From a virus (taxonomy: Duplodnaviria; Heunggongvirae; Uroviricota; Caudoviricetes), in IMG/VR virus record IMGVR_UViG_3300037471_001511, positions 1-64,000 of that record: 64,000 nt of DNA; one strand, 5' to 3'. Shown piece by piece: positions 4,340-35,906 of this stretch. Numbering within the stretch: position 1 is the stretch's first letter; the number at the start of each line of letters is the position of its first letter. A program made the translations under genes and the position numbers. Under the pieces are notes generated by a model that saw only the letters and a program-made list of their open reading frames with translations, had not been told where the DNA came from and did not search any database.

Positions 4340-4538
4340 CCTGAGCGCGTACCGTGAGGCTCGCGTCGAACCGCCTCCGGCCCCTCTGCCGGCCGAGGAC
4401 GAGGTGCTCTGCACCGTCACGATCACTTCCGAAGGGGTGCAGGTGTGGGTGTCCGACCAGGTCGCCACCCTGCCCCAGCGCGCCTGGCTGGCGCGCCGGA
4501 TCAATCAAGCGAAGGACATGCTGACATGGCGCGACTGA
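4329..4538 (+). CDS. hypothetical protein (69 aa)
   Basis: ATG 4329 in frame with track ORF 4227..4538; overlaps upstream stop. Confidence 0.35.
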   Translation: MLYDLSAYREARVEPPPAPLPAEDEVLCTVTITSEGVQVWVSDQVATLPQRAWLARRINQAKDMLTWRD

Positions 4539-5485
4539 AGCTCACCGGCGACGTCCATCTGGGCAAGAAGTTCCAGCAGAACGTCCCGCTTCACCGGCGC
4601 GGTGACCGCGAAAAGATGCAGTGGGAGCAGCTCGAGCGCGAGCTGATGGACTGCGACGGGGCCGACGCCCACATCCAGATGGGCGACATCTTCGACGGCT
4701 TCGTCGTCTCGTTCGCCGTGATCATGCGGCTGGTCGAGCTGTACAAGCGAGCCCGGGCCAAGAACCCGAACGTCCGCTTTGGCGTGCTCAGGGGCAACCA
4801 CGACGCGGACCGGGACCTGGACCGCGTGTCGGCGTTCGACGTGCTGGCCGAGCTGCTGGCCGCGATCGGCGTGGTGGTGGCCAAGGACGAGCCAGTGGAG
4901 ATCCTGCCCGGGCACTGGATGATCCCGTGGCACCCGATCATCTCGGCCCAGGCGATGGTCAACCACTACGCCGACCGGCTGGCCGGCGCCGCGGCGGTGT
5001 TCGGTCACTGGGACGTGGTCATGGGCGAGGAGAACCGCTGCCCGGCCCAGGCGCTGGCCCAGCTGGGCGTCGGCGCGATCTACACCGGCCACGACCACCT
5101 GCCGCGGATCGAGCGCGTGGACGGGGTCGACGTGTTCGTGGTGGGCTCGATGCAGCCCTACAGCCACGCCGAGGATCCGGGCGAGATCATCTACGTGACC
5201 CGCACCTTGGCCGAGGTCCGCGCCGACCCGAACGGCTTCGCCATGAAGGCGCTGCGCGTGGTGCTGGATCCGGGCGAGACCTTCGACCTGCAGATCGACT
5301 GCCTGCAGCTGCAGGTCACCCGCGGCAAGGTCGAGGCGGAGGAAGTCGACTTGGGCGAAGTCCAGTTCGAGGCCTTCGATCTGAACGAGCTGTTCGCGGC
5401 CGCCTGCCGGCAGATCGGGCTCGACGCCGAGACCCAGGCGCTCACCAGCCGGCGTCTGGAGGAAGAACGTGCGGCCCGCGCTTAG
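4526..5485 (+). CDS. sbcD: SbcD/Mre11-like metallophosphoesterase nuclease
   Basis: GDVHLG, GDIFDG, LRGNHD, GHWD, TGHDH calcineurin-like motifs; immediately followed by an SbcC-like ATPase. Confidence 0.8.
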   Translation: MARLKLTGDVHLGKKFQQNVPLHRRGDREKMQWEQLERELMDCDGADAHIQMGDIFDGFVVSFAVIMRLVELYKRARAKNPNVRFGVLRGNHDADRDLDRVSAFDVLAELLAAIGVVVAKDEPVEILPGHWMIPWHPIISAQAMVNHYADRLAGAAAVFGHWDVVMGEENRCPAQALAQLGVGAIYTGHDHLPRIERVDGVDVFVVGSMQPYSHAEDPGEIIYVTRTLAEVRADPNGFAMKALRVVLDPGETFDLQIDCLQLQVTRGKVEAEEVDLGEVQFEAFDLNELFAAACRQIGLDAETQALTSRRLEEERAARA

Positions 5486-5678
5486 CGACGCCCACGTCGC
5501 CGTGCTGACGGCCTGCCTCGAGCTGCCGCTCGCCCCGGGCGAAATGGCCCTGCTTCGATCCATCGTTCACCACGCCGGCATGGGAACCCTGCACGACTGG
5601 GGCATGGCCAACTTCATGCGCCAGGACGAGGTGAACGCCCTCTTCAACCGCTGTCAGGAGTTGCTCCGTGTTCCATAA
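5469..5678 (+). CDS. hypothetical protein (69 aa)
   Basis: short ORF bridging sbcD and sbcC, overlapping both. Confidence 0.35.
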   Translation: MRPALSDAHVAVLTACLELPLAPGEMALLRSIVHHAGMGTLHDWGMANFMRQDEVNALFNRCQELLRVP

Positions 5679-7749
5679 GCTGGACTACTCGGTCACCTTC
5701 GACAAAGGACCGAACGGCCCCCGCACGCTGCGGGCGTCGCTGAACTTCACCACCGGGTTCACCGTGATCAGCGGCCCGAACGAGGCCGGCAAGAGCTTCG
5801 TCTTCGAGATGATGCGCTTCGCCCTGTTCGGGACGCAGGCGCTGCGGGGCGCCGCTGAGGACTACAAGAGCCTGCGCATGTCGGCCGAGGTCGACATCCG
5901 CGGCGAGCGCTACCGGATCGACCGCAACATCGACAAGGCCACGCTGTACCGGGGCGGCCAGGTCGTCTGCAACGGCGTGCGCGCGGTCAACGACAAGATC
6001 GTCCGCATCCTGGGCTTCGGCCTGCAGGTGTTCGACGTGGCCTGCTCGGTGAACCAGGGCGAGGTCGAGCGCCTCGGCGCCATGGCGCCGGCGGAGCGCA
6101 AGAAGATGGTCGACGGCGTGGTCGGGATCGACACGCTGGACGTGGTGGCCAAGTGGTTCGTCGACGAGGCCAAGGTGTTCGACCGGGAGGCGGAGGCGAT
6201 CCGGTCCCGGCTCGTGGTCCCGGTCCGTCCGGCCGTGCCTGACGGCTATCGGTCCAGCGCCGAGATCCCGCTCGAGACCGCCCGCGCCCAGGCTCGCGAG
6301 CTGGCCGAGCTGACCGGCTGGTTGGCGCACGCCCGGCCCAAGCCGGCCGAGCCGACCTGCAAGGTCGATCTGCCGGCGGTGAACCTGACGGTGTTCGCCA
6401 ACAAGCGCCGCAAGCTGCGCGAAGAGATCGCCGACCTCGAAGCCGTGCCGCACGCGGTGGCGTTCTACACCGACGCGCAGCTCGACGAGGCGGAGACCGA
6501 CTGGCAGGCGTACGTCGAGTACGAGAACGCCCAAGCCTGGCTGCGCAACAACCCGGCGCCGCGGGCGACCGGCGAGCTGCAGCTCGACGTGTTCGAGGAC
6601 GACTGGACGGCGATCCACAACGTCGAGACGCGCGCCTCGCTCTGCCAGCGGATCAAGGCGCTGCAGGAGAAGGGCTTCAAGCTGTGCCCGCACTGCGGCG
6701 GCGAGATCCCGCTCGAGGAAGACGCCATCGAGCAGCTGGTCCAGCAGCACGACGCCCTGCCCGTGCCGGACAGCGGCCGGGCGCCGCCCACGCCGCCGCT
6801 CACCCCGGCCGAGATCGCGGTCGAGCGCCAGCGGCTGAAGACCTGGGACGCCGCGAAGGCCGAGCAGATGCGGGCCGTCGCGGAGATTCCCCGGCCGGGG
6901 ATTCCGAAGGAGGACATCCCGGTCCACCGCACGGTGATCAAGCAGGCCCAAGCTTGGAAGGACGCGCAGGGTCTGCTTGCGGCGACGCGGCATCAGTTCG
7001 CCGAGATGCCCGACTACGAGACCATGCTGATCGAGCGGCAGGCCTACGAGGAAGCCCTGCCCCGCTACCGGCAGGAGCTGGCCGACTGGGAGGCGTGGAA
7101 CACCGAGCGGCAGAAGAAGGAGCTGCGGCGCACCCAGCTGGCCGGCGCCGAGGCGACGCTCGCCGCGCTCGAGGCCGAGCACCGGACCGCCGTGGCGTTC
7201 GAGCAGCAGCTCGCCGTCTACGAGGCCGCCCGGCAGGCCTATGAGACCGGGGAGCGGGACGCCAACGACCTGACGGCCAAGGCCGAGCGCTACCGGAAGG
7301 TCCGCGACGTGATGGCGGTGCTGCGCTCGCTGATCAAGCAGCACCTGCTGCCCAGCCTGAACACGGTGGCCAGCGCGCTGCTGGCCGTCATGACCGGCGG
7401 CCAGCGCCGGTCGATCTACGTGGACGAGGAGTTCGACGTGCTGGTCGACGGCCAGCGCCTGAACACCCTGTCCGGCTCCGGCAAGGCCTGCGCCAACCTC
7501 GCGCTGCGCATCGCGCTCGGCCAGGTGCTGACCAACCGGGTGGTCTCGGTGCTGCTCGCCGACGAGATCGACGGCAGCATGGACGACTTCCGGGCCGAGA
7601 AAACGTCACAGATCCTATGGAACCTTACAAATAGCATCTCCCAGGTGCTGCTGGTCTCCCATAAGCAAATCGAAGGCGAACATCACGTTCGTATCGGAGG
7701 CTTAAGTGGGGACGGAGAACCAGCAGATCTCCTTGGATCGGCTGCGTGA
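5668..7749 (+). CDS. sbcC: SbcC/Rad50-like SMC ATPase
   Basis: Walker A GPNEAGKS near N-terminus, CPHCGG zinc hook in a coiled-coil middle, C-terminal LLADEIDGSMDD (Walker B/D-loop). Confidence 0.85.
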   Translation: MFHKLDYSVTFDKGPNGPRTLRASLNFTTGFTVISGPNEAGKSFVFEMMRFALFGTQALRGAAEDYKSLRMSAEVDIRGERYRIDRNIDKATLYRGGQVVCNGVRAVNDKIVRILGFGLQVFDVACSVNQGEVERLGAMAPAERKKMVDGVVGIDTLDVVAKWFVDEAKVFDREAEAIRSRLVVPVRPAVPDGYRSSAEIPLETARAQARELAELTGWLAHARPKPAEPTCKVDLPAVNLTVFANKRRKLREEIADLEAVPHAVAFYTDAQLDEAETDWQAYVEYENAQAWLRNNPAPRATGELQLDVFEDDWTAIHNVETRASLCQRIKALQEKGFKLCPHCGGEIPLEEDAIEQLVQQHDALPVPDSGRAPPTPPLTPAEIAVERQRLKTWDAAKAEQMRAVAEIPRPGIPKEDIPVHRTVIKQAQAWKDAQGLLAATRHQFAEMPDYETMLIERQAYEEALPRYRQELADWEAWNTERQKKELRRTQLAGAEATLAALEAEHRTAVAFEQQLAVYEAARQAYETGERDANDLTAKAERYRKVRDVMAVLRSLIKQHLLPSLNTVASALLAVMTGGQRRSIYVDEEFDVLVDGQRLNTLSGSGKACANLALRIALGQVLTNRVVSVLLADEIDGSMDDFRAEKTSQILWNLTNSISQVLLVSHKQIEGEHHVRIGGLSGDGEPADLLGSAA

Positions 7750-21797: not shown

Positions 21798-24434
21798 TCA
21801 TGTGTCGGTGGCGATGCTCGGAATAGCAACGCCGTTGATGCGCAGCGAATCGTTGGCCGGGATCGTCGTCGAATTGCGGCCGACGCGCTTGAGGTTCTGC
21901 GGCGTGTTGCCGCCCACCGCGGCCTGACCGGACTGGTCGAGCAGCCAGCGCTGCACCCAGATGTCACCGTAATTGAAATCGGTGCCGGTGTTCGTGTCCA
22001 TATAGAGCGCGTGGGTGGCCCAGTTGTTGGGCTTGAAGTTGTTGGCCGACTGGTTGTGCGTGCCGGCCACCACCCGGCAGTTGTTCATCACCACGTCGTT
22101 GACCTGGCCGACGAACCGGAAGGCCGCTCGGATGGTGGGGTGAGTCGCGCCCGAAACCACCGAGGTGTCCTGGAAGGTCATGCAGGCCGTGTCGTCGGCG
22201 GTGCAGCCGACCAGGTTCAGGGTGTGCATGTACTTCGAGTTGGCGATCACCCAGTTGTCGCCCATCGACTCCTGCCCGTGGCAGGCGATGAAGTCGGTGC
22301 GCCCGGCGCCCTCGAGCACCCAGTTGGCGTAGCGGTCCGACGTGCCGGGATCCGGCGGCGAGCCGGAGGTCGCCGACTTGCCGTTGAAGAACGACTTGCA
22401 GTTGGCGAAGCGGCACGAGGCGGTGGAGACGTAGAAGCCCGACTTGCTCGAGCCGCCCGCGTTCACACGGTCCAGGCTTAGGTCGAAGGAGTTGATTTCC
22501 ACGCCGCGCAGGGCCGAGTTGTAGATGCCGATGTCGCCGAACATCGACTCGCCGCGCAGCCAGTTGTAGGTCAGGCCGTTGCCGGCGATGTCCCACATGT
22601 GGATGTGGTGGAACCGCGTGTAGGTGTCGACGTAGTCGCCGACCTGCGGGAAGAACACCGAGCCCGCAGTGTCCTTGCTGGTGTCGAAGTAGATGCCGTG
22701 GACGAACGGTCCCGCGCCGCTGCCGCCGATGAAGTGCTTCTTGCCGTCCAGCCCGAAGCCGAACAGATGCAGGAACAGCGACGTGACGGAGTCGTAGCCG
22801 CTGGCCGGGCTCACATCCATCATGTTGATCATGGCGTCCCAGCGGCCGGCCTTGGAGCCGCCGGAGCCCGACGTGTCGGTCGCGCTGCTGGTCTTGTAGT
22901 TGCCCGGACGCGCCCACAGCTGGCACTGCAGCGGACCGTAGCCCATCAGCGCCACGCCCTGCGGGATCTTCAGCGGACCAGTCAGGTAGTTGCCGGGCGG
23001 TAGGACCACCACCGAGCTGGCGCGGGTGCGCGCCGAGGTGCCCTGCTTCTTCGCCGCGTTCAGCGCCGCCTGGATGGCGGCGGTGTCGTCGTGGCCCCAC
23101 AGCGCGCGACTGGCCGCCTGCGACGAGCCGGAGGCGGTGGTCAGGGTGACTTGGGTGGCGCTGTCGACCGAGCCGATGACCCGCGGGTTGAAAGTGCCGC
23201 CCACCGAGGCGAACCAGATGGTGGCCCCGACGTGCTCGGGCCGGAACGGACCGGACGCGGCGGTGACCGTCGTCGAGCCCGAGTTACAGACCACGTCGTG
23301 CGCTTCCTGGGCCGCACCCTTGGCGCCGTAGAGCAGCACGTTGAACGTGCGGCCGGTCATGGCCCGGGCCTTCTCGCCGAACGTCACGGCCTTCCACTCG
23401 CCCGACTGCCAGATCAGGTCGCCGTCGCCGTCCACCAGCTGGGAGTTGCTGTGGTTGAGGCCGGTGTAGGGCGTCATGCCGCCCCCACCCCCGCCGGCCG
23501 GCACCGTCCAGTTTCCCGTGCCGTTCAGGAACTTGGTGGCGTCGTTCGGGTAGGCCAGCAGCTTCGACGCGTGGGTGACGAAGGTGACCGCCGTGGTCCC
23601 CAGCGTGCCGCTCGAGGCGTCGTTGGTGCAGTAGAAGAACTTGTCGCCGTTGGTCGTGCCTTCCTGCACCTCGACGATGCACCCGGCCAGCTCGCCCCAG
23701 CTGTCCGCCTCCGGCGCGCGGGTCAGGGCGGCGCTCGACCCGTTGAACTTGTACACGCCGTTCTGCGACCCGGTGGTCTGCGACATCAGCAGCAGGTAGT
23801 CGCCGCTGGTCAGGGTCACGCCGTCGAAGATGGCCGCGCCAGGGTTGGTGACAGTGACGTTGCCGGTGGCCGCGGCCCGTGCCTTGACCGTCGTGGATGA
23901 CAGCGAGGTGCCGCCGGCGCCTGCGGCCTTGAGGTCGATCTTCCCGGTGGCGTCGTTGTAGGTGATGGTCACCGAGCTGTCGCTCGAGGTGAGCATCGCC
24001 GCAACGGTGTCCTGGATGAACTCGGCCGAGACGGTCAGATTGTAGGTGCCGCCGTTGTCGTCGTAGCTCAGCCCGACCGAGCCGTCGCTCGAGGTCAGCA
24101 TCGCGCCGACGATGTCCTGCACCGCCTCGGGCACCAGGCTGAGGTCCAGCACGTTGGCGGCGTCGTTGTAGGTCACCGCGACCGTGCCGCCGCTCGACAC
24201 CACGAACGCGCCGACGATGTCTTGGATCTGCTCGGTGGTGAGCGAGCTGCCGCCGCCGCTCGGCATGTCGCCGACGGTGTACGTGCCCCAGCCGTCGCCG
24301 GCCCGGTAGATGATCAGCTTGTCGGTCAGCTCGGCCGGGGCCAGGCTGCTGTAGCTGTTGATGTCGGTGGGCAGACCGCCGCTGCCGCTCAGCGTGGTCG
24401 AGCCGCCACCGGTGGGACCGAGGTTCACAGGCAT
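21798..24434 (-). CDS. tail fibre/tailspike with probable polysaccharide-depolymerase (beta-helix) domain
   Basis: N-terminal triple repeat (VAVTYNDAANVLDLSL, VGLSYDDNGGTYNLTV, VTITYNDATGKIDLKA); long Gly/Thr/Asn-rich beta-helix-like C-terminal part. Confidence 0.65.
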   Translation of the reverse strand: MPVNLGPTGGGSTTLSGSGGLPTDINSYSSLAPAELTDKLIIYRAGDGWGTYTVGDMPSGGGSSLTTEQIQDIVGAFVVSSGGTVAVTYNDAANVLDLSLVPEAVQDIVGAMLTSSDGSVGLSYDDNGGTYNLTVSAEFIQDTVAAMLTSSDSSVTITYNDATGKIDLKAAGAGGTSLSSTTVKARAAATGNVTVTNPGAAIFDGVTLTSGDYLLLMSQTTGSQNGVYKFNGSSAALTRAPEADSWGELAGCIVEVQEGTTNGDKFFYCTNDASSGTLGTTAVTFVTHASKLLAYPNDATKFLNGTGNWTVPAGGGGGGMTPYTGLNHSNSQLVDGDGDLIWQSGEWKAVTFGEKARAMTGRTFNVLLYGAKGAAQEAHDVVCNSGSTTVTAASGPFRPEHVGATIWFASVGGTFNPRVIGSVDSATQVTLTTASGSSQAASRALWGHDDTAAIQAALNAAKKQGTSARTRASSVVVLPPGNYLTGPLKIPQGVALMGYGPLQCQLWARPGNYKTSSATDTSGSGGSKAGRWDAMINMMDVSPASGYDSVTSLFLHLFGFGLDGKKHFIGGSGAGPFVHGIYFDTSKDTAGSVFFPQVGDYVDTYTRFHHIHMWDIAGNGLTYNWLRGESMFGDIGIYNSALRGVEINSFDLSLDRVNAGGSSKSGFYVSTASCRFANCKSFFNGKSATSGSPPDPGTSDRYANWVLEGAGRTDFIACHGQESMGDNWVIANSKYMHTLNLVGCTADDTACMTFQDTSVVSGATHPTIRAAFRFVGQVNDVVMNNCRVVAGTHNQSANNFKPNNWATHALYMDTNTGTDFNYGDIWVQRWLLDQSGQAAVGGNTPQNLKRVGRNSTTIPANDSLRINGVAIPSIATDT

Positions 24435-28188: not shown

Positions 28189-31100
28189 TCACAACCGGAT
28201 TGTGTATTTTCCACCCCCGCCGAGAGGCGGAGGCGGCGGGGGCGAGTAACCACCTGTCGTCAACTGGGTCAGCATGGCGCCGATGTAGAAGTACCGGCTG
28301 ATGTCCGTCCAATACGCGCCGGCGTTTTGCAGCGTGGCCGCGACATAGGTCATGGTCTGCAGGTCGAGGAACACATGATACCAGGTGTTCGCCGACAGGC
28401 CGTTGATCGCCGCGCCAGGCGCGCTCAGCGTTTCGGGACCGGGCAGCGTGTAGGTGTGCGCCGCGACGACGATGGCCGTTGAGAACGAGGACATCGGCGC
28501 GTCGTTGTCGCGGAAGTAGCTGTTGCCGGTCAACACGTTGCGCGCCAGCGCCCGGTAGTTGGTCATCACCCCCGACGTGTCGAAGTGCTGGGTGCGGTCG
28601 ACCACGTACTGGGAGTCCTGCAGGTTGCCCAGCGGCGTGCCCTGCGGCGCGCCGATCGTGGCGCCGAACTCGCCTTCCATGCCCTCCGTGAACGACGGAT
28701 TGGTCGTGGCGGTGCTGTGGATCTGCCGCAGGAACGGCATCTCGATCCCGAGCGTGCAGCCGCCGGTGGTCGTCGTGGCCTTCAGACCGATGAACTCCAC
28801 GTAGCAGAACTTGGCGGTGGCCGGGGCGTCGACGATCTCGAACGCCTCGGTGTCGTCCACGGTCGCGTCGAAGCTGCTCACCGGGGTCGGGTCGGCGATC
28901 GGCGTCAGGTTCTTGGTGAAGAACTTCACCCGCACACGCAGGCCGGTCGCGCCGGGACCGCGGCCGGTCAGGGTTCCCCCGCCCGCGTAGCGCTTGCCGC
29001 CCTTGATCTTGATGTACTGCGCCTTTCCCTTGGTGGTGTCGACGCCCAAGCTGCAGGCCGCGAACACGGTGTTGCCGGCCTGGCCCGTGCTGGTGCCGAG
29101 GATCATCACGGGATCCCCGGTCGTTCCGCCGAGGATCAGGCTCGAGGTGTTCAGCGTCGCCCCGCCGCCCGGGTTCTGGGTGATCGAGTGACCTTTGATG
29201 CCGAGCTGGTAGCGGGTCAGGCGGATCAGGTTGGAGCCGGCCGCGTTGATCGCGGACAGATCAGCCCCACTGGCCGACGCCGCGACATCGACTTGGGCAG
29301 GCACCGTGTACCAGTTCAGATCCTGCTGGCTGTAGGCGTCGTAGTGCGCCACCTGCACCGAATAGCTGCCCGGGGCGAGCGGGATGGTGACCTGCGCCGC
29401 CTTACCCGCGTCCTTCGCCGGTAGCCCGTTCACCTGCACCAGCGTGCCGGCGAAGTCGAGTTCGGGCGGCGGATCCCAGTCGACCAGCAGCGCGCCGGTC
29501 AACCCGGTCGCGTCCACGCCCACGGGCGTGGCCGGGGCCGGGTTGGTGACCGTCAGCTCGATTTCCGGCGACTCCTCGCCGAACTGATCGACGCAGCAGA
29601 CCTGGAAAGTGAAGGTCCGCAGGATCGTGCTCGCGAGCTGGTCGGGGAAATTGTACTTCCACGACCGCGCGTCGTTCACGTCGGCCTGCCGCACGAGCTG
29701 GCCGGTGTCGGGGTCGATGATCTTCACCCGGTAGGTCTTGAACAGCGGATCCGGGCTCAGCGGCGGATCCCACTCGAACACCGGGTCGAGCGTCTCGAAC
29801 GTCGTGCCGCCGCCGACCAGGCGCACGTTCTCGGGCGGGTCGAGCGCGCGGATCAGCAGGTCGCCGATCTCGTCGTTGTCGGAGACGTTGAAGAAGATCC
29901 GCACCGGCTTGCTTTCGCGGCCGAGCACGTTGATCGCCGTCACGTCGAAGACGTACTGACCCCGCTGCGCGTACGGCATGCGGAACTCGGTCAGGTACGT
30001 CTCCGACTCGTTGATCGGCTGGTTATTGACGTAGGCCTTGACCCGGAACCGGCGTACCCAGCGGTTCAGCGGCTTCACCCAGCTGATCACCAGGATCCGG
30101 CTGACGACGGCGCCGTGACGCTCGGTCAGCACGTCCACCTTCGCGCCGCGGATCTCGTCGACGAAGGTGTTGCTCAGGTCCGTGTAGCTCAGGTCGGGCT
30201 GTTCGACCGCCGTGTCGATGTAGGCGAACTTGTTCCGGTTCAGCTCGAGGGCGGTGAGCGTGATCACCTCGCCGGTGCTGGAGTCGTCGTCGATGTCGAG
30301 CAGACGGTACGGCTTGGGCAGGCCGGTCACCCCGTCGGCCGACAACGCGAAGGCGGCGTACTCCGGCAGGTTGTCCGGCAGGTCGTCGGCGAACTCGAGC
30401 GTGCTCAGGCCCGAGCCGGCCGGGGTGGCGACCTCGAGCTGGACGATCTTGAACGGGTTGGTTTCCCCGGCCGGGTAAGCCGGGTTCCGGATGGTGAAGG
30501 TGGCGATGTAGGTGAAGCCCGCCTCGAGCGAGACAGGGTCGCGCAGGGAGACCTGGCGCGGCCCGGTCACTTCGCGCACGCGCCCGGACAGGCCCCGCCC
30601 CTGTTTGGGATCGGCCACGAGGATCACGTCCCACTCGCGGAGGAACTTGCCCTGCCGGTTGGTGGTGAAGGTGACGAACTCCTTTTCGGTCAGGCCGCCG
30701 ATCAGGCGCCGGCGCATGCGCCGGTCGGCCTCCCACACGTTGGTGCAGCCGACCATCTCGAAGGGCTCGGTGATCCGGCCGTAGTCGGCGATGTCCTGCT
30801 CGTCGCGGAGGATGCGGGTGTCCGACTGCCAGTTCAGCTCCGGATTGATGAAGGTGCCCTGGATCTCGTTGGCGCGGGTCTGGCGGTCCGAGTAGCTGTA
30901 CTTGAAGCCGTCCTCGCTGACGTTCTCGGGCGTGAACAGCGCCACCGGATCATCGTTGGCGTCGATCAGGATCTCGACGTTGCCCGCGCCGTCGTCCACG
31001 TATTTGGCCGCGCCGATCGAGGCGATGAACTGCGCCATCTCCCGCGCGTCGCGGGGCTGCTGCAGGTAGTCGTTGTAGGTCCAGCGCGGCTGGGTCGTGC

Positions 31101-32643
31101 CGTCGGGCAGCGGCACCCGCTCGTCGCAGGACACGCCCCACTGGTAGATCTGGGCGTTGTTGACGACGTGCGGATAGACCGACGACAGGCCGTAGCGGTC
31201 GTTCTCGACGAAGTCCTTGAACACGAAGGCGGGGTTGTTGTTGCACGCCAGCTTCCAGGTGCCGTCCCACGTTCCGCTGAAGATGCGCGTGTCGGGATCG
31301 TAGTTCGACGGCACGCGGATGATCCGGCCCATGTAGATGCCGTTCCATGTCGGCAGGGCCGTGAACTGGTCGGACGCTTGGCCGACCACGCGGGCCATCG
31401 CCAGACCGTAGAAGGTCCGCGCCTCGCGCTTGATCTCCGTGAAGCTCTCGAAGGTGACGTCGCGGAACTGGGTCTTCGCGTTGCTGTCGGGGGACAGCTT
31501 GGTCACCCGCACCTCGACCGGGTATTCCTGCTTGGGGATCAGGATCCGGATGTCCTTGGGCGTGGGCGAAGTCGCCTTGGCGACGATCGACCAGACGCCG
31601 TCCTCGGTAGACCCTGAAATGATCTGGGTGGGGCTGCCCGACTTCAGCCAGCTTCCGGTGAAGTAGATGTACCACTGACCGTTGCTGGTGTTCTTCCACA
31701 TGTCGCCCGCGACCGCGTTCTTGCGCATGTCGGCGGTGAGCGAGGGCGTAGCCGGCCAGATCCGGTGGACCCGCCCCTGCTGATCGGTGAAGCTGCCGCC
31801 GGTGATGGTGCTGGCGTCGAGGATCTGTTCCCACGTCTGCTCCGGCAGGGTGTTCAGCACCACGTCGTCGGCGAACAGCGCCACCGGGTGGGATTGGGCG
31901 TAGAGCGTGCCGGTGAGCGTATCCTCGTAGACCGCGTTCGGATCGGTGACGGTCGTGGAGACCGAGGGCGGCCCCTCCCCGGTCACGATCTGGCGGGAGC
32001 CTTGGAAGGTGGCCGACGTCGGCGCCGAGGCGGTGGTGTCGCTGGTCCAGTGGTCGCCGGTCGGATCGCCGCTCGGCGGGAACGTGTCCGGCACCTCGAT
32101 GTGGGCGGCCGCCGGGATCGCGGGACGCCACGCCGCCTCGTGGATGCCTTTCCACTCGAGCTTGACCTTCAGGTCGAGTTCGAAGGTGCCGTCGTCGTTG
32201 GTCTTCTGCAGGTTGTTGACGACGAGGCGGAAGTCGATGGCGTCGATGCCGTAGGTCAGACCACGGCGGACGACGGGCGTGTCCTGGGCCAGCGGTACGC
32301 CCACCTGGATCGGGTTCGCGAAGCCGCCGAGGTGCATCGCCACCTCGTGGCCGGTCTCGTTGCCGGGCCAGGTGTCGAGCGTGAAGTTCTTGAAGTTGGG
32401 CTTGCCGCTGCCCTCGTTGATCAGCGGCGTGTCGTCCAGCATGAACGACTTCGGCCCGTTCTTCAGACCGAGGATCGGCCCCTCGGAGATCCCGAGCAGC
32501 ACCTCGACCGTATCGTCCGACCGCAGCGTGTCCGGCGTGCGTTGGGGCGAGTCGCCCGAGCCGCCCTTGCGGAAGAGCAGTTCCTGTCCCATCACGCCGC
32601 CTCGCTGAACATCTCGGGGGTGACGACGGCGCGGCCCACGCAA
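28189..32643 (-). CDS. tail tip/host-specificity protein (lambda gpJ-like), 1484 aa
   Basis: size, position after gpI-like gene, Thr/Gly/Asp-rich beta-rich sequence with fibronectin-III-like stretches. Confidence 0.75.
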   Translation of the reverse strand: MRGPRRRHPRDVQRGGVMGQELLFRKGGSGDSPQRTPDTLRSDDTVEVLLGISEGPILGLKNGPKSFMLDDTPLINEGSGKPNFKNFTLDTWPGNETGHEVAMHLGGFANPIQVGVPLAQDTPVVRRGLTYGIDAIDFRLVVNNLQKTNDDGTFELDLKVKLEWKGIHEAAWRPAIPAAAHIEVPDTFPPSGDPTGDHWTSDTTASAPTSATFQGSRQIVTGEGPPSVSTTVTDPNAVYEDTLTGTLYAQSHPVALFADDVVLNTLPEQTWEQILDASTITGGSFTDQQGRVHRIWPATPSLTADMRKNAVAGDMWKNTSNGQWYIYFTGSWLKSGSPTQIISGSTEDGVWSIVAKATSPTPKDIRILIPKQEYPVEVRVTKLSPDSNAKTQFRDVTFESFTEIKREARTFYGLAMARVVGQASDQFTALPTWNGIYMGRIIRVPSNYDPDTRIFSGTWDGTWKLACNNNPAFVFKDFVENDRYGLSSVYPHVVNNAQIYQWGVSCDERVPLPDGTTQPRWTYNDYLQQPRDAREMAQFIASIGAAKYVDDGAGNVEILIDANDDPVALFTPENVSEDGFKYSYSDRQTRANEIQGTFINPELNWQSDTRILRDEQDIADYGRITEPFEMVGCTNVWEADRRMRRRLIGGLTEKEFVTFTTNRQGKFLREWDVILVADPKQGRGLSGRVREVTGPRQVSLRDPVSLEAGFTYIATFTIRNPAYPAGETNPFKIVQLEVATPAGSGLSTLEFADDLPDNLPEYAAFALSADGVTGLPKPYRLLDIDDDSSTGEVITLTALELNRNKFAYIDTAVEQPDLSYTDLSNTFVDEIRGAKVDVLTERHGAVVSRILVISWVKPLNRWVRRFRVKAYVNNQPINESETYLTEFRMPYAQRGQYVFDVTAINVLGRESKPVRIFFNVSDNDEIGDLLIRALDPPENVRLVGGGTTFETLDPVFEWDPPLSPDPLFKTYRVKIIDPDTGQLVRQADVNDARSWKYNFPDQLASTILRTFTFQVCCVDQFGEESPEIELTVTNPAPATPVGVDATGLTGALLVDWDPPPELDFAGTLVQVNGLPAKDAGKAAQVTIPLAPGSYSVQVAHYDAYSQQDLNWYTVPAQVDVAASASGADLSAINAAGSNLIRLTRYQLGIKGHSITQNPGGGATLNTSSLILGGTTGDPVMILGTSTGQAGNTVFAACSLGVDTTKGKAQYIKIKGGKRYAGGGTLTGRGPGATGLRVRVKFFTKNLTPIADPTPVSSFDATVDDTEAFEIVDAPATAKFCYVEFIGLKATTTTGGCTLGIEMPFLRQIHSTATTNPSFTEGMEGEFGATIGAPQGTPLGNLQDSQYVVDRTQHFDTSGVMTNYRALARNVLTGNSYFRDNDAPMSSFSTAIVVAAHTYTLPGPETLSAPGAAINGLSANTWYHVFLDLQTMTYVAATLQNAGAYWTDISRYFYIGAMLTQLTTGGYSPPPPPPLGGGGKYTIRL

Positions 32644-33764
32644 CCGAAGCGGTCGTCGTAGGTCATGCAGCTGGCTTCCTGCTCGCTCAGGTACGCGTGC
32701 CGGGCGGAGTGGGAGTCGGGCGCGGCCAGCGTCGGGTGCTGGATCACCTTGACGCCCGGGAACTCCTTCTCGTCGACGTGGTGCCGGTGCCCGGTGTGGA
32801 TGTAGCGCTTGCGGGTCGCGCCCCAGACCACCGGGTAGCGCGCGGCGAACAGCAGCGGCAGGCTCTCGTTCTTGGCCAGATGGCCGTGGTGCATGCCCAG
32901 CATCACCACGCCGTGCTGGTGGACGTAGTAGGGCAGTTCGGAGTCATCGACGAACAGCCGCGGCTCGCGCTCGTACAGCGCCTTGAACATGTGCCGCAGC
33001 CACAGCGAGGACACGAGGTCGTGGTTGCCCTCCGCGAACACCACGTAGACTTCCTCGTGCGTGCGCAGCGCCAGGTCGATCATCCGCCGCAGCACCCGGA
33101 TCGCCGCCGCGATGATCTCCGAGAGCTTGCCGGCCGCGTCGAGGACGTGGCCGTGGGTGGGCGTGACCGGCAGCAGGCTGTCGAAGTGCAGGAAGTCGCC
33201 TTGGATGTTCAGCAGCGCCGTCCGGGCCGCCGGCGCCGAGACCAGCATGTGGCGAAACACCGAGAACAGCAGCCGCTCGGCGATCTCGATGTTCCAGTCG
33301 GCGCCGGTCTCCTTGCCCCAAGCCAGCATGCCGAGGTGGTAGTCGGTGAAGGTGTAGAGGTTCAGCAGGTGGGCGAAGACGTCGTCCGGCGGCGCGATCG
33401 GCTCGAGCCGAGGCAGCTCCGCGGTCATCGCCTCGAGCGCGGCCTGCCGTGCGGCCTCGAGCTGCTCGGCGTCCGGCTTGGCCTGCACCCACTGGCCGCC
33501 GACCTTGCCGTCACGGCCGTAATAGGTGGACACCTTGCTGACTTGGAAGGTGTCGGGCACCGGGCGGGTCATCCCGTGTTCAGGCGCGTAGCCGCGGCTC
33601 GCTGCCTTGGCGACCAGTCGCTTGATCGTCACCCGGATGGTGCCGTCGCTGACGCCGAGCACCCGGGCGGCGGGACGGAAGCCGCCGTACTTGTTCACGG
33701 CCTCGAGGAACTCGCTCTGCCGGGGCGAGGCGTAGCGCTTCAGGCCCTCGTCGAGCGGCTTCAT
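32592..33764 (-). CDS. N-terminal HTH fused to calcineurin-like metallophosphoesterase, embedded in tail module
   Basis: HTH GGFRPAARVLGVSDGTIRVTIKRL; phosphoesterase motifs TDYH (DxH), QGDF (GD), FAEGNHD (GNHD), GMHHGH, HTGHRHH (GHxH). Confidence 0.7.
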   Translation of the reverse strand: MKPLDEGLKRYASPRQSEFLEAVNKYGGFRPAARVLGVSDGTIRVTIKRLVAKAASRGYAPEHGMTRPVPDTFQVSKVSTYYGRDGKVGGQWVQAKPDAEQLEAARQAALEAMTAELPRLEPIAPPDDVFAHLLNLYTFTDYHLGMLAWGKETGADWNIEIAERLLFSVFRHMLVSAPAARTALLNIQGDFLHFDSLLPVTPTHGHVLDAAGKLSEIIAAAIRVLRRMIDLALRTHEEVYVVFAEGNHDLVSSLWLRHMFKALYEREPRLFVDDSELPYYVHQHGVVMLGMHHGHLAKNESLPLLFAARYPVVWGATRKRYIHTGHRHHVDEKEFPGVKVIQHPTLAAPDSHSARHAYLSEQEASCMTYDDRFGCVGRAVVTPEMFSEAA

Positions 33765-34321
33765 TTCTTGCCCACGTCCTTGGCGTCGATGTTCAAGGAC
33801 ATGATGTGGCCGCCGCAGCGGTACTCGCCGTAGAGCAGCGGGATCGGTGTCCCGATCTTCACGGTGTTCTGGGTCGAGGGAAGGTACTTGGAGCGCTTCT
33901 CGGGGCTCTCCGGCTTGGGCACCGGGTAGAGCATCTGCATGACGCCGCCGATCACCAGCGATAGGCCCATCATGAACAGCTTCAACGACAGCGTGCCGCC
34001 GGTGAATTCGTCCATGGGCGCGATGGCGATGGCCGTGATGATCAGGACCACCCCGATGATCGTCTGGATCACCCCCTGCCGCTTGGCGAAGGTCAGCGCC
34101 GGGAAGACGTGGATGTCCTCCTCGTTGGTCGGCGCGCGCAGACTCTCCAAGCTGTAGAAGCCGGCGACCTGGACGCGCTTGCGGCCGTCGAGGTCCGGCT
34201 TGAAGCCCGGGAGCTGGCGGGTCACCAGCTCGATGGCCTCCCAGACCGTGGCCGCCACCACTTCGATCGGCCCGTCGTGGAAGGCGGCGAAGGCGCCGTG
34301 CAGGTGGACACGCTTACGCAT
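33761..34321 (-). CDS. tail assembly protein (lambda gpI-like)
   Basis: size, position and hydrophobic central segment IIGVVLIITAIAIAP. Confidence 0.55.
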   Translation of the reverse strand: MRKRVHLHGAFAAFHDGPIEVVAATVWEAIELVTRQLPGFKPDLDGRKRVQVAGFYSLESLRAPTNEEDIHVFPALTFAKRQGVIQTIIGVVLIITAIAIAPMDEFTGGTLSLKLFMMGLSLVIGGVMQMLYPVPKPESPEKRSKYLPSTQNTVKIGTPIPLLYGEYRCGGHIMSLNIDAKDVGKK

Positions 34322-34658
34322 TGACCACCGCCCTTCCCTTGACGGCGTACCAGCGTACTCCGTCGGTCCCGACGATGGCGTGCAGCCACGCGGGCCAGCC
34401 CCGGAAGGTCTCCCAGTCTTCGGTGGTCAAAGTGGCGCTGGCGTCCGGATGGGTGTGCCAGCTCGCCACCACGCGGTGTTCGTACGGGATCAGTTGCCCG
34501 ACGTCGAAGACCGCCAGGTTTTCAGGGTCGTCGGCCAGATTGATGAACTCGACGACGCTGCCGTCGTCGAGGATCACCCCTCCCCGTTCAGGTCCGGGGG
34601 CCAGCCGCTCCGTCAGCGCCGCGTCGAGTTCTGAGTTCTTCCAGGCGGCGTTCGACAT
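34314..34658 (-). CDS. JAB/MPN-domain protein (lambda gpK N-terminal-like) as a separate gene
   Basis: SWHTHPDASATLTTED approximates the JAMM HxHx7Sx2D motif. Confidence 0.5.
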   Translation of the reverse strand: MSNAAWKNSELDAALTERLAPGPERGGVILDDGSVVEFINLADDPENLAVFDVGQLIPYEHRVVASWHTHPDASATLTTEDWETFRGWPAWLHAIVGTDGVRWYAVKGRAVVNA

Positions 34659-35109
34659 GCTGCGGGAGCACCGTTCGGAAATCGACAGCGGTCTCGACGC
34701 GGACCCTCGGCGCGCTCTTGTGCCGATAGACCCCGACGAGGTTGTTCCTGAAGATCCCGCCGTAAGCGGTCTCGCAGGACAGTTGTCCGACTAGGTGATG
34801 CAGGATCCTGTTATTGTCGAGCCAGATCATGCAGTGATTTCCAATGGAACTTTCCACTGCGGACACCAGCACGTCGCCGACTTTCCACTCCCGTGGATTT
34901 AATTCCACTGGAACGAAATCTTCCTCGGCCGCCAGATCACGGAACAGGTCGAGCGAGCAGAACCCCTGCCCCCAGTTGGCCGGGTAGGGGTAGTCGCTCA
35001 GCTCGAGGCCGAAGTTGTCCCGGTAGAAGTCCCGCACCAGCGTGTAGCAGTAGCGGGCGTTGGGATCCCACGGGATGCCGATCAGGTGCCGGTAGCGCAG
35101 CTCGTTCAT
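34588..35109 (-). CDS. NlpC/P60-family protein (lambda gpK C-terminal-like)
   Basis: RYCYTLV...GNHCMIW...HH Cys/His pattern; ATG 35109. Confidence 0.55.
   Translation of the reverse strand: MNELRYRHLIGIPWDPNARYCYTLVRDFYRDNFGLELSDYPYPANWGQGFCSLDLFRDLAAEEDFVPVELNPREWKVGDVLVSAVESSIGNHCMIWLDNNRILHHLVGQLSCETAYGGIFRNNLVGVYRHKSAPRVRVETAVDFRTVLPQHVERRLEELRTRRGADGAAGPRT
34837..34915. promoter_or_regulatory. intragenic cluster of four motif-family copies inside the NlpC/P60 gene
   Basis: ATTTCCAATGGAAC, TTTCCACTGCGGAC, TTTCCACTCCCGTGGA, ATTCCACTGGAACG within 80 bp; local GC clearly below genome average. Confidence 0.45.
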
Positions 35110-35906
35110 CACAGCACCACGAACGGATAACCTTCGCTCGGCGAGAAGATCCGGCGCGGCGTCTGCCATGCCGGCATGTCGAGCGGCGAACCGAGTTCGA
35201 GCGTCAGCACCTGGTCGGTGACCTCGAGCGGCCGGCGCACCAGCCACAGGCGCTTCTGGAAGATGTTGACGTTGGCGAGCACGTGCCGGCCGAGCACGCG
35301 GAAGCGCGTCACCTCCGCCAGATCGAAGAAGCCCTCGGCAGCGTAGGCGCCGAAGACGTTCTCCGGGTTGACCACGATCAGTTTCGGCCGGGCCGCCTGG
35401 TCGTCGGTCGAGCGCCGCTCGCCCTGCATCTGACAGGCCAGCGCCTCATAGGTCTCGCCCTGCCAGACAATCTCGGCGCCGTCGCTCACGGCCTGGGTGA
35501 AGCGGTAGATGATGCCCACCTTCTTCAGGCGGATCTCCCACAGGTCGACGTAGCCGTCGGCCTCGAGCTTGAGCGACTCGTCGATGTGGTCCCCGGGCGG
35601 CGCCCCCGGGCCGACCTGCGGGACGCTGGGCGGCAGCGGCGGAGGCGGCGGAGGCGGCGGAGGCGGCGGCGAGGGCAGCGGACCGGGATCGTCGGGGCTG
35701 TCGTAGAGCACCGCGAACGCGGTCAGCTTGGAGACCTTGTACTCTTCCGACGGGACGAGTACCGCGAACTTGCTGATCTTGGTGGCGACGACAGCGTCCG
35801 AAGGCGGCCCCAGCACCGCGAAGCCCGTTACCTTGGTGACGACGGGATTGCCGGTCGGGGGCGTCAGGACCGCGAACGCTACGAGCTTGGAGACGTCCAC
35901 GCTCAC
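35109..35906 (-). CDS. minor tail protein (lambda gpL-like) with N-terminal 4x repeat module and polyproline linker
   Basis: repeats VSKLVAFAVLTPP, VTKVTGFAVLGPP, ATKISKFAVLVP, VSKLTAFAVLYDSP; PPPPPPPPPPPLPP; gpL-like C-terminal half. Confidence 0.6.
   Translation of the reverse strand: MSVDVSKLVAFAVLTPPTGNPVVTKVTGFAVLGPPSDAVVATKISKFAVLVPSEEYKVSKLTAFAVLYDSPDDPGPLPSPPPPPPPPPPPLPPSVPQVGPGAPPGDHIDESLKLEADGYVDLWEIRLKKVGIIYRFTQAVSDGAEIVWQGETYEALACQMQGERRSTDDQAARPKLIVVNPENVFGAYAAEGFFDLAEVTRFRVLGRHVLANVNIFQKRLWLVRRPLEVTDQVLTLELGSPLDMPAWQTPRRIFSPSEGYPFVVL

Follow-up and report, generated by a model that had tools for sequence, protein, structure and literature searches.

A PHROG 704 metallophosphoesterase with an N-terminal HTH domain, encoded between gpI and gpJ of a Seuss-like siphophage: possibly an A1-like DNA nuclease

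Introduction

The A1 protein of phage T5 consists of an N-terminal DNA-binding domain of ~60 aa and a C-terminal nuclease domain (bioRxiv 10.1101/2022.08.27.505566). It is essential, degrades DNA non-specifically and is reported to be necessary and sufficient for the degradation of the host chromosome in vivo; its nuclease activity in vitro is unproven (bioRxiv 10.64898/2026.04.02.716235). A1 is also reported to bind RNA polymerase and to dampen pre-early promoters (bioRxiv 10.64898/2026.04.02.716235). Another phage metallophosphoesterase, Gp48 of mycobacteriophage A10ZJ24, is reported to disrupt host DNA and to silence defence genes (EMBO Rep 2025, PMC12287305).

Here we describe a metallophosphoesterase (MPP) which is encoded within the tail operon of a siphophage. 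The stretch of DNA that was analysed, 64,000 nucleotides in length, is referred to as the window.

Results

The gene and its neighbours

A sequence-only reading of the window had placed an HTH-fused metallophosphoesterase between two tail genes. The ORF is a real gene of 390 aa, which starts with ATG and has a GC3 of 0.95, matching gpI (0.95) and gpJ (0.93); the + strand ORFs overlapping it are high-GC shadows (Table 1). A recent foreign origin of the gene is not supported by this composition. One metagenome contig from JGI, 74,060 bp in length, encodes the identical protein.

Table 1. Features of the MPP locus and of the SbcCD-like locus in the window.
Feature	Position	Strand	Remarks
HTH-metallophosphoesterase (MPP) gene, 390 aa, PHROG 704 member	32592..33764	-	ORF, translation, phrog_704 match
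N-terminal four-helix HTH DNA-binding domain, sigma-70 region 4 / LysR-type, aa 6-56	33597..33749	-	
Linker module, beta-hairpin and long helix, aa 73-115	33420..33548	-	both models
Calcineurin-fold binuclear metallophosphoesterase core, full metal-ligand set, aa 130-381	32622..33377	-	
gpI-like tail assembly protein, upstream flank	33761..34321	-	phrog_32 (tail assembly protein I), E 6.7e-40
gpJ-like central tail fibre, downstream flank	28189..32592	-	phrog_31 (central tail fibre J), E 1.7e-137
ATGA overlap, gpI-like stop / MPP start	33761..33764	-	minus-strand read ...GGCAAGAAATGAAGCCG
TGATG overlap, MPP stop / gpJ-like ATG start	32590..32594	-	...GCGGCGTGATGGGACAG
SbcD-like gene, second MPP in the window	4445..5485	+	
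SbcC-like gene, adjoining the SbcD-like gene	5668..7749	+	

Both flanks were named correctly in that reading, as their PHROG matches indicate. The gpI-like protein is 56% identical to gp027 of Caulobacter phage Seuss, and the gpJ-like protein also matches Pfam FNIII-A_GpJ and Phage-tail_3. The ATG at 32592 was taken as the start of the latter; in the version that begins there, the alignment with relatives sets in at residue 5. The MPP gene shares bases with both neighbours, AAATGA at its start and the gpI stop, and GTGATGG at its stop and the gpJ start. In an MPP-less relative from IMG/VR (L078) the identical TGATG overlap joins gpI straight to gpJ. No promoter-like or terminator-like site was found near the MPP gene when the sigma-70 consensus was used. 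Given the translational coupling on both sides, the MPP and the tail-tip proteins are probably produced jointly, and we infer that this happens late. Such late, tail-coupled expression is hard to reconcile with host takeover, except if the protein enters the virion or has another role.

Domain architecture and catalytic motifs

The predicted architecture, a sigma-4-type HTH fused to a calcineurin-like MPP, was borne out, and every metal-ligand motif is intact. The motifs follow the canonical order D141-x-H143, G189-D190, G246-N247-H248-D249, H292/H293/H295 and G325-H326-x-H328 and show no variation in 46 close relatives. Among 58 diverse family members D141, H143, D190, N247, H248, H293, G325, H326 and H328 are invariant, and the other motif positions are kept in 55-57. 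The protein has the alpha/beta sandwich of the MPP fold and is in this respect nearest to Mre11/SbcD, with phosphodiesterases (PDEs) scoring below these nucleases. Both models show the linker module as two strands (73-82, 88-97) and a helix (99-115). Its residues S79, G86, Q91 and W92 are conserved among close relatives, and the module has no match to any known domain.

A Pfam search had been proposed as a check of the MPP assignment, and its outcome is divided. Neither Metallophos nor Metallophos_2 matched the window protein above the gathering score or at E < 0.01, and weak matches to Metallophos_2 were seen in 15 of the 46 relatives (best E 4e-4). The assignment to the superfamily therefore rests on motifs and fold, which support it. 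PHROG 704-type sequences are too divergent for the Pfam Metallophos HMMs. Pfam and NCBIfam scans of the window protein returned weak HTH matches and no MPP or PDE family, class III PDE families included; of the 46 relatives, 17 have NUMOD-like HTH matches. PDB sequences were searched both with the protein itself and with a profile of its family. No match was significant; a LysR HTH (E 0.47) and motifs I-II of SbcD from T. maritima (E 1.3) came closest.

Members of PHROG 704 in other phages

The window protein is not new. As its full-length match to phrog_704 shows ("DNA repair exonuclease"; E 2.3e-109, residues 30-386 aligned to profile positions 23-389 of 390), it belongs to a very common, already catalogued and uncharacterised phage family. 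PHROG 704 is present in 2016 phage records (about 2,000 sequenced phages), among them 559 from Escherichia, 468 from Klebsiella and 373 from Salmonella phages. In cultured phages it is represented by T1 gp16 / Rtp61, by proteins of Dhillonvirus, Jerseyvirus and Webervirus, and by Bonnellvirus J8-65 gp23, Rhodobacter phage RcMaeve gp50 and cyanophage Pam1 gp19. These proteins align with the window MPP over the full length, with 33-50% identity and identical catalytic residues, although many align only from about query residue 30-60 and may miss part of the HTH.

Unlike the window gene, none of these genes lies between gpI and gpJ. Some adjoin lysis genes or lie within the tail module on the opposite strand, and others are found in DNA-metabolism blocks or upstream of terminase. 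The homologue of the T7-like Bonnellvirus J8-65 belongs to a DNA-metabolism block, where it is placed between endonuclease VII/exonuclease and polynucleotide kinase. A literature search on members of PHROG 704 (T1 gp16, SECphi18, tail-associated phosphoesterases) found no functional data, and the label of the family is a guess. Many of the phages concerned (T1-like, Dhillonvirus, Jerseyvirus, Webervirus) serve as models or for therapy.

Occupancy of the gpI/gpJ slot

The tail region gave no megablast match among cultured phages, and relatives were therefore sought at the protein level. In all, 50 loci with related tail modules were informative. In 28 of them the slot between gpI and gpJ is filled, always by a gene for a DNA-binding domain fused to an MPP and always co-oriented with the tail genes. 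Four families contribute to these occupants: phrog_704 in four loci and in the window, HTH-bearing phrog_7339 in 17, the T5 A1 family phrog_1745 in one and a fourth family in six. The A1-family protein (phrog_1745, E 8e-183) is 36% identical to T5 A1; it is a true homologue of A1 that carries an additional HTH (L020/L040). The fourth family bears a 'FGTFEEFKRQAG' module, which we take to be HNH-repeat-like. Profile-profile links among the four families are weak, the best being 7339 versus 704 with E 4e-5 over 233 columns.

The window gene had been regarded as an inserted accessory gene, and the related loci agree with this. In L078, Seuss and Achromobacter phage JWF gpI is joined directly to gpJ. 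Homologues that are conserved tail components would speak against an accessory gene; of the 50 loci, 17 have an empty slot, those of L078, Seuss and JWF included. Among close relatives the window, L018 and L035 carry an MPP gene at this position, while L078 and Seuss have none, and no homologue of the window MPP was found in the whole Seuss genome. A structural or tail role of the MPP is rejected, since the gene is missing from the closest relatives and from all of Seuss. The comparison of these loci shows the MPP gene to be an optional cassette and not a part of the tail, with an exact point of insertion where gpI meets gpJ in a Seuss-like siphophage.

The window MPP is 49-59% identical to its 80 closest family members and 29-36% identical to the other slot members, which rank 96-102 of its 102 matches. 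No homologues of gpI, gpJ, gpK or gpL were found near the genes of these 80 nearest relatives. Vertical inheritance of one ancestral slot gene is rejected for PHROG 704, as the 80 nearest relatives reside in other genomic contexts.

Such a distribution raises the question of a selfish gene. A nuclease of the homing endonuclease kind would spread without benefit to the phage: its DNA-binding module would target a site near gpI/gpJ in relatives that have no cassette, the MPP would cut there, and repair would copy the cassette. The sporadic occurrence among close relatives fits this picture, as do the exact insertion with overlapping stop and start codons kept, the presence at one junction of five or more MPP lineages that are unrelated or polyphyletic, the different genomic contexts in which the nearest relatives of the window MPP occur, and N-terminal modules in the style of homing endonucleases. 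LAGLIDADG homing endonuclease genes themselves occupy the slot in two loci (L019, L047). However, the catalytic domain is an MPP and does not belong to the known classes of homing endonucleases (LAGLIDADG, HNH, GIY-YIG, His-Cys, PD-(D/E)xK, EDxHD), and we know of no homing endonuclease with an MPP fold. PHROG 704 also appears to be conserved, and not sporadic, across whole genera, the essential A1 of T5 degrades DNA without specificity, and recombination through the flanks between co-infecting relatives can spread any cassette that lies between conserved genes. We therefore regard a homing-type gene as unlikely. Slightly more doubtful is the wider proposal that PHROG 704, phrog_7339, the A1 family and the fourth family form an unrecognised class of homing-type MPP-fold cassettes which invade gpI/gpJ of Seuss/JWF-like siphophages time and again and in a site-specific manner, with the host-DNA degradation of the T5 type as a domesticated offshoot.

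Possible function of the cassette

The fold nearest to Mre11/SbcD, together with N-terminal modules that are nuclease-associated DNA binders, leads us to read the protein as a DNA nuclease of the A1 type that would serve in host takeover or counter-defence, a reading to which we give about an even chance. The earlier reading did not consider a DNA nuclease, which is favoured by the evidence. The HTH would tether the enzyme to DNA, and an Mre11/SbcD-like di-metal centre, probably with Mn2+, would cleave phosphodiester bonds. Host or competitor DNA would likely thereby be destroyed or processed during takeover, host gene expression including that of defence genes shut off, and nucleotides freed. 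Recurrent genes for DNA-binding domain-MPP proteins, including true T5 A1 homologues, substitute for each other at one locus. The N-terminal modules of the slot families seem to be of nuclease-associated kinds (NUMOD-like, HNH-repeat-like), and the J8-65 homologue is part of a DNA-metabolism block. With the A1 family the protein shares sequence similarity in the HTH region only, so the argument is one of positional analogy and not of orthology. Against a nuclease it counts that the HTH could serve regulation instead of substrate binding, and that A1 of T5 acts ahead of all other phage genes whereas the window gene is part of the tail (late) operon.

The difficulty of timing would disappear if the MPP were a virion-associated enzyme, located at the tail tip or ejected. 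Produced with gpI/gpJ, it would be taken up into the particle and reach the next host along with the DNA, where its A1-like activity would be available at once. Late expression and early function would then be in accord. This proposal is compatible with a nuclease and differs from it in where and when the protein acts. The translational coupling to tail-tip genes and the common orientation of all slot occupants point in this direction, as does the frequent position of PHROG 704 genes beside tail or lysis genes; in cyanophage Pan1 an A1-family gene lies between capsid and tail genes. However, a gene that is missing in the closest relatives is not required for tail building, the gene of Dhillonvirus and Jerseyvirus is on the strand opposite to the tail genes, and T7-like and temperate phages carry it in early or nin-type regions. 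In the papers on cyanophages Pam1 and Pan1 no mass-spectrometry evidence was found for an MPP in the virion, and a folded 43-kDa enzyme would be hard to thread through a siphophage tail. Altogether a virion enzyme seems improbable.

The sequence-only reading had put forward the hydrolysis of cyclic (oligo)nucleotides and a regulatory phosphatase, neither of which is favoured by our results. A counter-defence phosphodiesterase would act on immune signals (cAMP/cGMP, cyclic di- and trinucleotides, cADPR-type), and accessory, patchy genes of fast turnover are indeed typical of counter-defence loci. However, PDEs are not the nearest folds, and the window protein has neither NCBIfam nor PADLOC matches. 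Compared with the PADLOC defence HMMs, neither the window protein nor the slot MPPs of L018 (704-type) and L023 (7339-type) gave a match at E <= 0.1; the A1-type slot protein of L020 gave a spurious match to Cas12c (E 0.022). A DNA-binding domain is of no obvious use to a hydrolase of soluble nucleotides, yet all four slot families have one, of nuclease type. The site in a late operon is wrong for an enzyme needed at the onset of infection, and a literature search found no MPP-fold counter-defence enzyme for cyclic oligonucleotides. As nothing specific supports a PDE, we rate it, like the virion enzyme, as improbable.

A regulator of late expression, either an HTH factor for transcription or RNA polymerase binding or a DNA-tethered protein phosphatase, is very improbable. 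The HTH fold is that of sigma-70 region 4 / LysR-type proteins, T5 A1 is reported to bind RNA polymerase and dampen pre-early promoters, and in two temperate phages the gene is directly upstream of the terminase/late operon. In Pseudomonas phage IME307 antiterminator Q has a phrog_7339 relative just upstream of it, at the position that the NinI phosphatase holds in lambda. However, all eight metal ligands are strictly invariant, which argues for catalysis, and the position of the gene varies widely among phages. For a protein phosphatase there is nothing specific, and one of the slot families is the A1 family of T5.

Discussion

The interchange of four HTH-MPP families, including true T5 A1 homologues, at one junction of a tail operon leads to the hypothesis that these proteins are functional equivalents of A1. 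If this is true, a very common orphan family, PHROG 704, would gain a function in host takeover or counter-defence. It would also bear on defences which sense breakdown products of host DNA (Metis, PUA-Cal-HAD). The late, tail-coupled site raises the question whether the slot MPPs are loaded into virions.

Comparison with known systems

To Mre11/SbcD the window MPP shows 15-18% identity over about 185 residues, confined to the MPP core. The capping domain of these nucleases has no match in the MPP, whose gene neighbours are gpI and gpJ and not a Rad50/SbcC partner. The window does encode a bona fide SbcD/SbcC pair (4445-7749) at a separate locus, and the MPP had rightly been called unrelated to its SbcD-like gene. 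Class III PDEs (CpdA, Rv0805) and GpdQ score below the nucleases and have no DNA-binding domain.

Gp48 is likewise a phage MPE, with five conserved motifs and a reported phosphodiesterase activity, and is reported to counter host defence. In contrast to the window gene it is expressed early; the likeness is one by description, in which no fused HTH appears (PMC12287305).

T5 A1 (PHROG 1745, 'DNA transfer protein', a predicted metallophosphatase) belongs to a different sequence family. Phrog_1745 is absent from the PHROG matches of the window protein, and hhalign of A1-like against 704 sequences covers the HTH alone (38 columns, E 2.4e-4, probability 44%). The window MPP is ~150 aa shorter. While A1 is pre-early, encoded on the first-step-transfer DNA and essential, the window gene is part of the tail operon and its lineage can do without it, and the role of A1 with A2 in the second-step transfer of T5 has no counterpart here. 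Both proteins nevertheless share the layout of a DNA-binding domain and an MPP domain, and the motifs DxH, (S/G)NHD and GHxH are common to them.

The gene and its neighbours

The G+C content of the window amounts to 66.5%, and therefore long reading frames occur on both strands. The codon signature of the MPP frame, which starts with ATG, is that of a real gene, with a GC3 of 0.95 and a GC2 of 0.42 as in its neighbours, and one JGI metagenome contig of 74,060 bp carries an identical protein. Both flanking genes match profiles of the tail proteins I and J, as claimed in the sequence-only reading, and farther upstream of the gpI-like gene lie gpK-like (JAB), gpL-like and gpM-like genes and the gene of a 2013-aa tape measure protein. 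The ATG of the MPP gene overlaps the gpI stop (AAATGA) and the gpJ ATG overlaps the MPP stop (GTGATGG). No sigma-70-like promoter or intrinsic-terminator pattern was found on this strand between 28.2 and 36.3 kb, a result of little weight as E. coli is not the host. The MPP gene looks co-translated with the tail-tip proteins.

About 450 nt in the tail module are covered only by a reading frame overlapping both its neighbours, the gpK-like and gpL-like genes. It is probably a half of gpK of NlpC/P60 type that is encoded separately and starts at a later codon (compare the annotation of JWF gp023). The 878-aa protein, whose gene lies downstream of those for lysis, is a possible fibre or decoration protein. 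The separate SbcD-like gene, earlier placed at 4526, is indeed present in the replication module, where it pairs with an SbcC-like gene; its equivalent in Seuss is gp062, a 'metallo-dependent phosphatase'.

No cultured phage is close to the window at the DNA level. At the protein level Caulobacter phage Seuss agrees with the window in its tail module (gpI 56%) and overall gene order, and Achromobacter phage JWF does so more distantly. Window and Seuss (Seussvirus, 85 kb; NC_047757; loci L163 and L164) are syntenic, with the common order primase, terminase, portal, capsid, tail, J, lysis, RNR, SbcCD and DNA polymerase. This makes it probable that the window comes from a virulent siphophage of the Seuss type with an alphaproteobacterial host.

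Coordinates of features in the window and in the compared loci
Feature	Sequence	Position	Strand	Match or remark
SbcD-like	window	4445-5485	+	phrog_100, E 1.5e-18
SbcC-like	window	5668-7749	+	phrog_77, E 1.7e-41
878-aa protein	window	21798-24434	-	residues ~160-290 match head-decoration / Ig-like PHROGs (phrog_2647, E 4.6e-29)
gpJ-like, central tail fibre J	window			downstream of MPP gene; PHROG 31, E 2e-137; Pfam FNIII-A_GpJ and Phage-tail_3
MPP gene	window	32592-33764	-	390 aa; PHROG 704, E 2.3e-109
gpI-like, tail assembly protein I	window	33761-34321	-	upstream of MPP gene; PHROG 32, E 7e-40
gpK-like (JAB)	window	34314-34658
Overlapping frame	window	34588-35247	-
gpL-like	window	35109-35906
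PHROG 704 islet	L015, Bas70 (Dhillonvirus)	4405-6286
PHROG 704 islet	L016, Salmonella phage celemicas (Jerseyvirus)	4666-7146
PHROG 704 gene, T1 gp16 / Rtp rtp61	L014	4845-5981
Fourth-family gene	L059	6589-7833
Extended gpI	L046	5995-7215
Extended gpI	L060	1947-2855
Extended gpI	L071	6001-6816
Extended gpI	L073	5944-6894
LAGLIDADG-type gene	L019	4429-5226		phrog_4645, E 2.6e-44
LAGLIDADG-type gene	L047	6553-7359		motifs only
A1-family gp25	L031, cyanophage Pan1	4791-6422		'DNA transfer protein'
PHROG 7339-type MPP	L029, Pseudomonas phage IME307	6860-8268

Motifs, fold and family membership

All MPP motifs named earlier were found in the protein, as D141-x-H143, G189-D190, G246-N-H-D249, H292/H293/H295 and G325-H326-x-H328. 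They do not vary among 46 relatives (54-60% identity), and a set of 58 diverse members, T1-like, Jerseyvirus, Dhillonvirus and Bonnellvirus proteins among them, keeps the core metal ligands without exception. The Pfam Metallophos models stay below threshold for the window protein (15 of the 46 relatives give weak Metallophos_2 matches). PHROG 704, 'DNA repair exonuclease', is matched over the full length. The assignment to the superfamily therefore rests on the motifs and the fold. Comparison scores are 13.4 for Mre11, 13.3 for both MJ0936 and SbcD, 12.5 for the Pol delta B subunit, 12.0 for LpxH, 11.9 for PolD DP1, 11.2 for the class III cyclic-nucleotide phosphodiesterase Rv0805, 11.1 for GpdQ and 7.8 for the Ser/Thr phosphatase PP5, and due to these values the protein is regarded as a generic, divergent MPP that leans slightly towards the DNA nucleases. 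A conserved beta-hairpin and helix without known match separates the HTH from the MPP core. The protein belongs to the MPP superfamily and to PHROG 704, and neither to the T5 A1 family nor to Mre11/SbcD proper.

The window protein is a further member of a catalogued, uncharacterised family. By tblastn 2016 cultured-phage records match it, every one below 60% identity, the main hosts being Escherichia (559), Klebsiella (468), Salmonella (373) and Vibrio (254); at least 3,570 protein clusters of the metagenome collection and at least 572 IMG/VR stretches match as well. The PHROG 704 gene lies after the lysis genes in Rhodobacter RcMaeve, between endonuclease VII/exonuclease and polynucleotide kinase in Bonnellvirus J8-65, after the tailspike in cyanophage Pam1, upstream of the holin in Rtp (rtp61, annotated as highly similar to T1 gp16) and just upstream of the terminase in a Cupriavidus prophage and a P22-like contig. 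A literature search found no experimental work on any PHROG 704 member.

In Dhillonvirus and Jerseyvirus the gene belongs to a small islet on the opposite strand, which lies between the genes of the major tail protein and of the tail chaperones and looks like a moron or exclusion cassette; in celemicas the islet also holds the gene of a DNA-binding protein and one annotated as 'immunity to superinfection membrane protein'. Classical T1 'gene 2.5' mutants do not degrade host DNA and show high-frequency transduction. The PHROG 704 gene, about 2 kb downstream of the helicase gene, could be gene 2.5; a literature search on this link yielded nothing usable.

Genes at the gpI/gpJ junction

With the gpI protein and then a gpI alignment, 51 distinct IMG/VR loci with the tail module were collected and classified by their gpI-gpJ content. 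In 17 of them gpI abuts or overlaps gpJ, five have a gpI with a C-terminal extension instead, one is truncated and uninformative, and 28 carry a gene of 0.9-1.6 kb on the strand of the tail genes. The extension measures 90-220 aa in the tabulated loci. The empty loci include the closest relative, L078 (gpI 59%; junction ...ATCTGATGCTC), as well as Seuss, whose whole genome gave no tblastn match with any of the four slot families. Phages of this type can do without the MPP gene, and it is no component of the tail; the accessory insertion suggested from the sequence is thus supported.

In each of the 28 filled loci the product has a DNA-binding module at the N-terminus and behind it an MPP domain whose motifs are canonical, and four separate families are represented: PHROG 704 (four loci and the window), PHROG 7339 with an HTH (17 loci, several near-identical), PHROG 1745, the T5 A1 family (one locus), and a fourth family (L058, L059, L061, L065, L068 and L069). 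The HTH of the PHROG 7339 slot proteins shares the motif GGFRPAAR with the window protein. Members of the fourth family (352-414 aa) come from low-GC relatives, have the motifs SDxH, GDxFD, GNHE and GHHH and an N-terminal repeat 'FGTFEEFKRQAG'; the N-terminal stretch 'RNFFRNNS...SAWxKHFGTFEEFKRQAG' resembles an HNH-associated repeat. Profile-profile similarity among the families is weak, the best being PHROG 7339 against 704 (E 4e-5, 233 columns).

The 80 family members nearest to the window protein in IMG/VR are 49-59% identical to it, and no gpI/J/K/L homologue lies within 5 kb of any of them. It shares only 29-36% identity with the other PHROG 704 slot members, which rank 96-102 of 102 matches; judged by these identities the occupants from PHROG 704 are polyphyletic. 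Several independent events have filled the junction, each time with a protein of this one kind. What is new is comparative: the gpI/gpJ junction of Seuss/JWF-like siphophages is a recurrent landing site for DNA-binding-MPP cassettes of at least four families. In two loci a LAGLIDADG-type homing endonuclease gene lies between gpI and the MPP gene, and therefore the junction attracts other mobile nuclease genes too.

Possible functions and comparison with T5 A1

The cyclic-nucleotide phosphodiesterase proposed as a counter-defence enzyme is allowed by the fold alone, nothing specific points to it, and it would explain neither why a DNA-binding module is fused to every slot MPP nor why the gene lies in a late operon; it is not favoured. 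The sigma-4-like HTH and the position upstream of late operons or of antiterminator Q in some temperate phages suggest a purely regulatory protein, with which the strictly conserved catalytic residues are hard to reconcile. The proposed protein phosphatase is likewise not favoured. In the D3-like temperate phage IME307 the PHROG 7339-type MPP gene lies directly upstream of the gene for antitermination protein Q, the place of the NinI phosphatase in lambda.

The best-supported mechanism, by analogy, is that of a DNA nuclease like A1 of phage T5. T5 A1 is a predicted metallophosphatase, essential and with its gene on the first-step-transfer DNA; second-step transfer requires A1 and the DNA-binding protein A2, A1 is reported to bind RNA polymerase, and its nuclease activity in vitro is as yet undemonstrated (bioRxiv 10.64898/2026.04.02.716235). 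Its residues 1-60, in which escape mutations from retron Ec67 fall, were modelled as a GcrA-like DNA-binding domain (bioRxiv 10.1101/2022.08.27.505566). The MPE Gp48 of mycobacteriophage A10ZJ24 is reported to show phosphodiesterase activity, host DNA disruption and defence-gene silencing (PMC12287305). The PHROG 1745 occupant of the slot (L020, 540 aa) shares 36% identity with T5 A1 over 88% of its length and 62% with a phiCbK protein.

The tail-operon placement is odd for a takeover nuclease, since A1 acts before anything else, in contrast to a gene apparently co-translated with tail-tip proteins. The protein may be loaded into virions, for which the siphophage Pan1 offers a parallel: its gp25 gene, with the major capsid gene on one side and the tail genes on the other, is another A1-like MPP within a structural operon. 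It may also act late, for example on residual host or superinfecting DNA. Finally, the position may be a trace of how the cassette arrived and not of when it is needed, which leads to the possible reading as a free-standing gene of homing-endonuclease kind. To this would fit the sporadic occurrence among close relatives, the exact insertion between conserved genes, several unrelated MPP lineages at one junction, DNA-binding modules of homing-endonuclease style and the LAGLIDADG genes in the same slot. However, no homing enzyme with an MPP fold is known, and whole genera seem to have PHROG 704 as a conserved gene.

The A1-like nuclease is favoured because of the architecture, the nuclease-leaning fold, the nuclease-type DNA-binding modules and the interchangeability with an A1 homologue at the slot. 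The window gene is a common member of its family in an uncommon place, and by this clean natural 'swap experiment' the function of an orphan family very widespread in phages becomes open to testing. Like T5 A1 the window protein consists of a DNA-binding module and an MPP, and a true A1 homologue is positionally interchangeable with it; the claim is that it would 'work like A1', not that it 'is an A1'.
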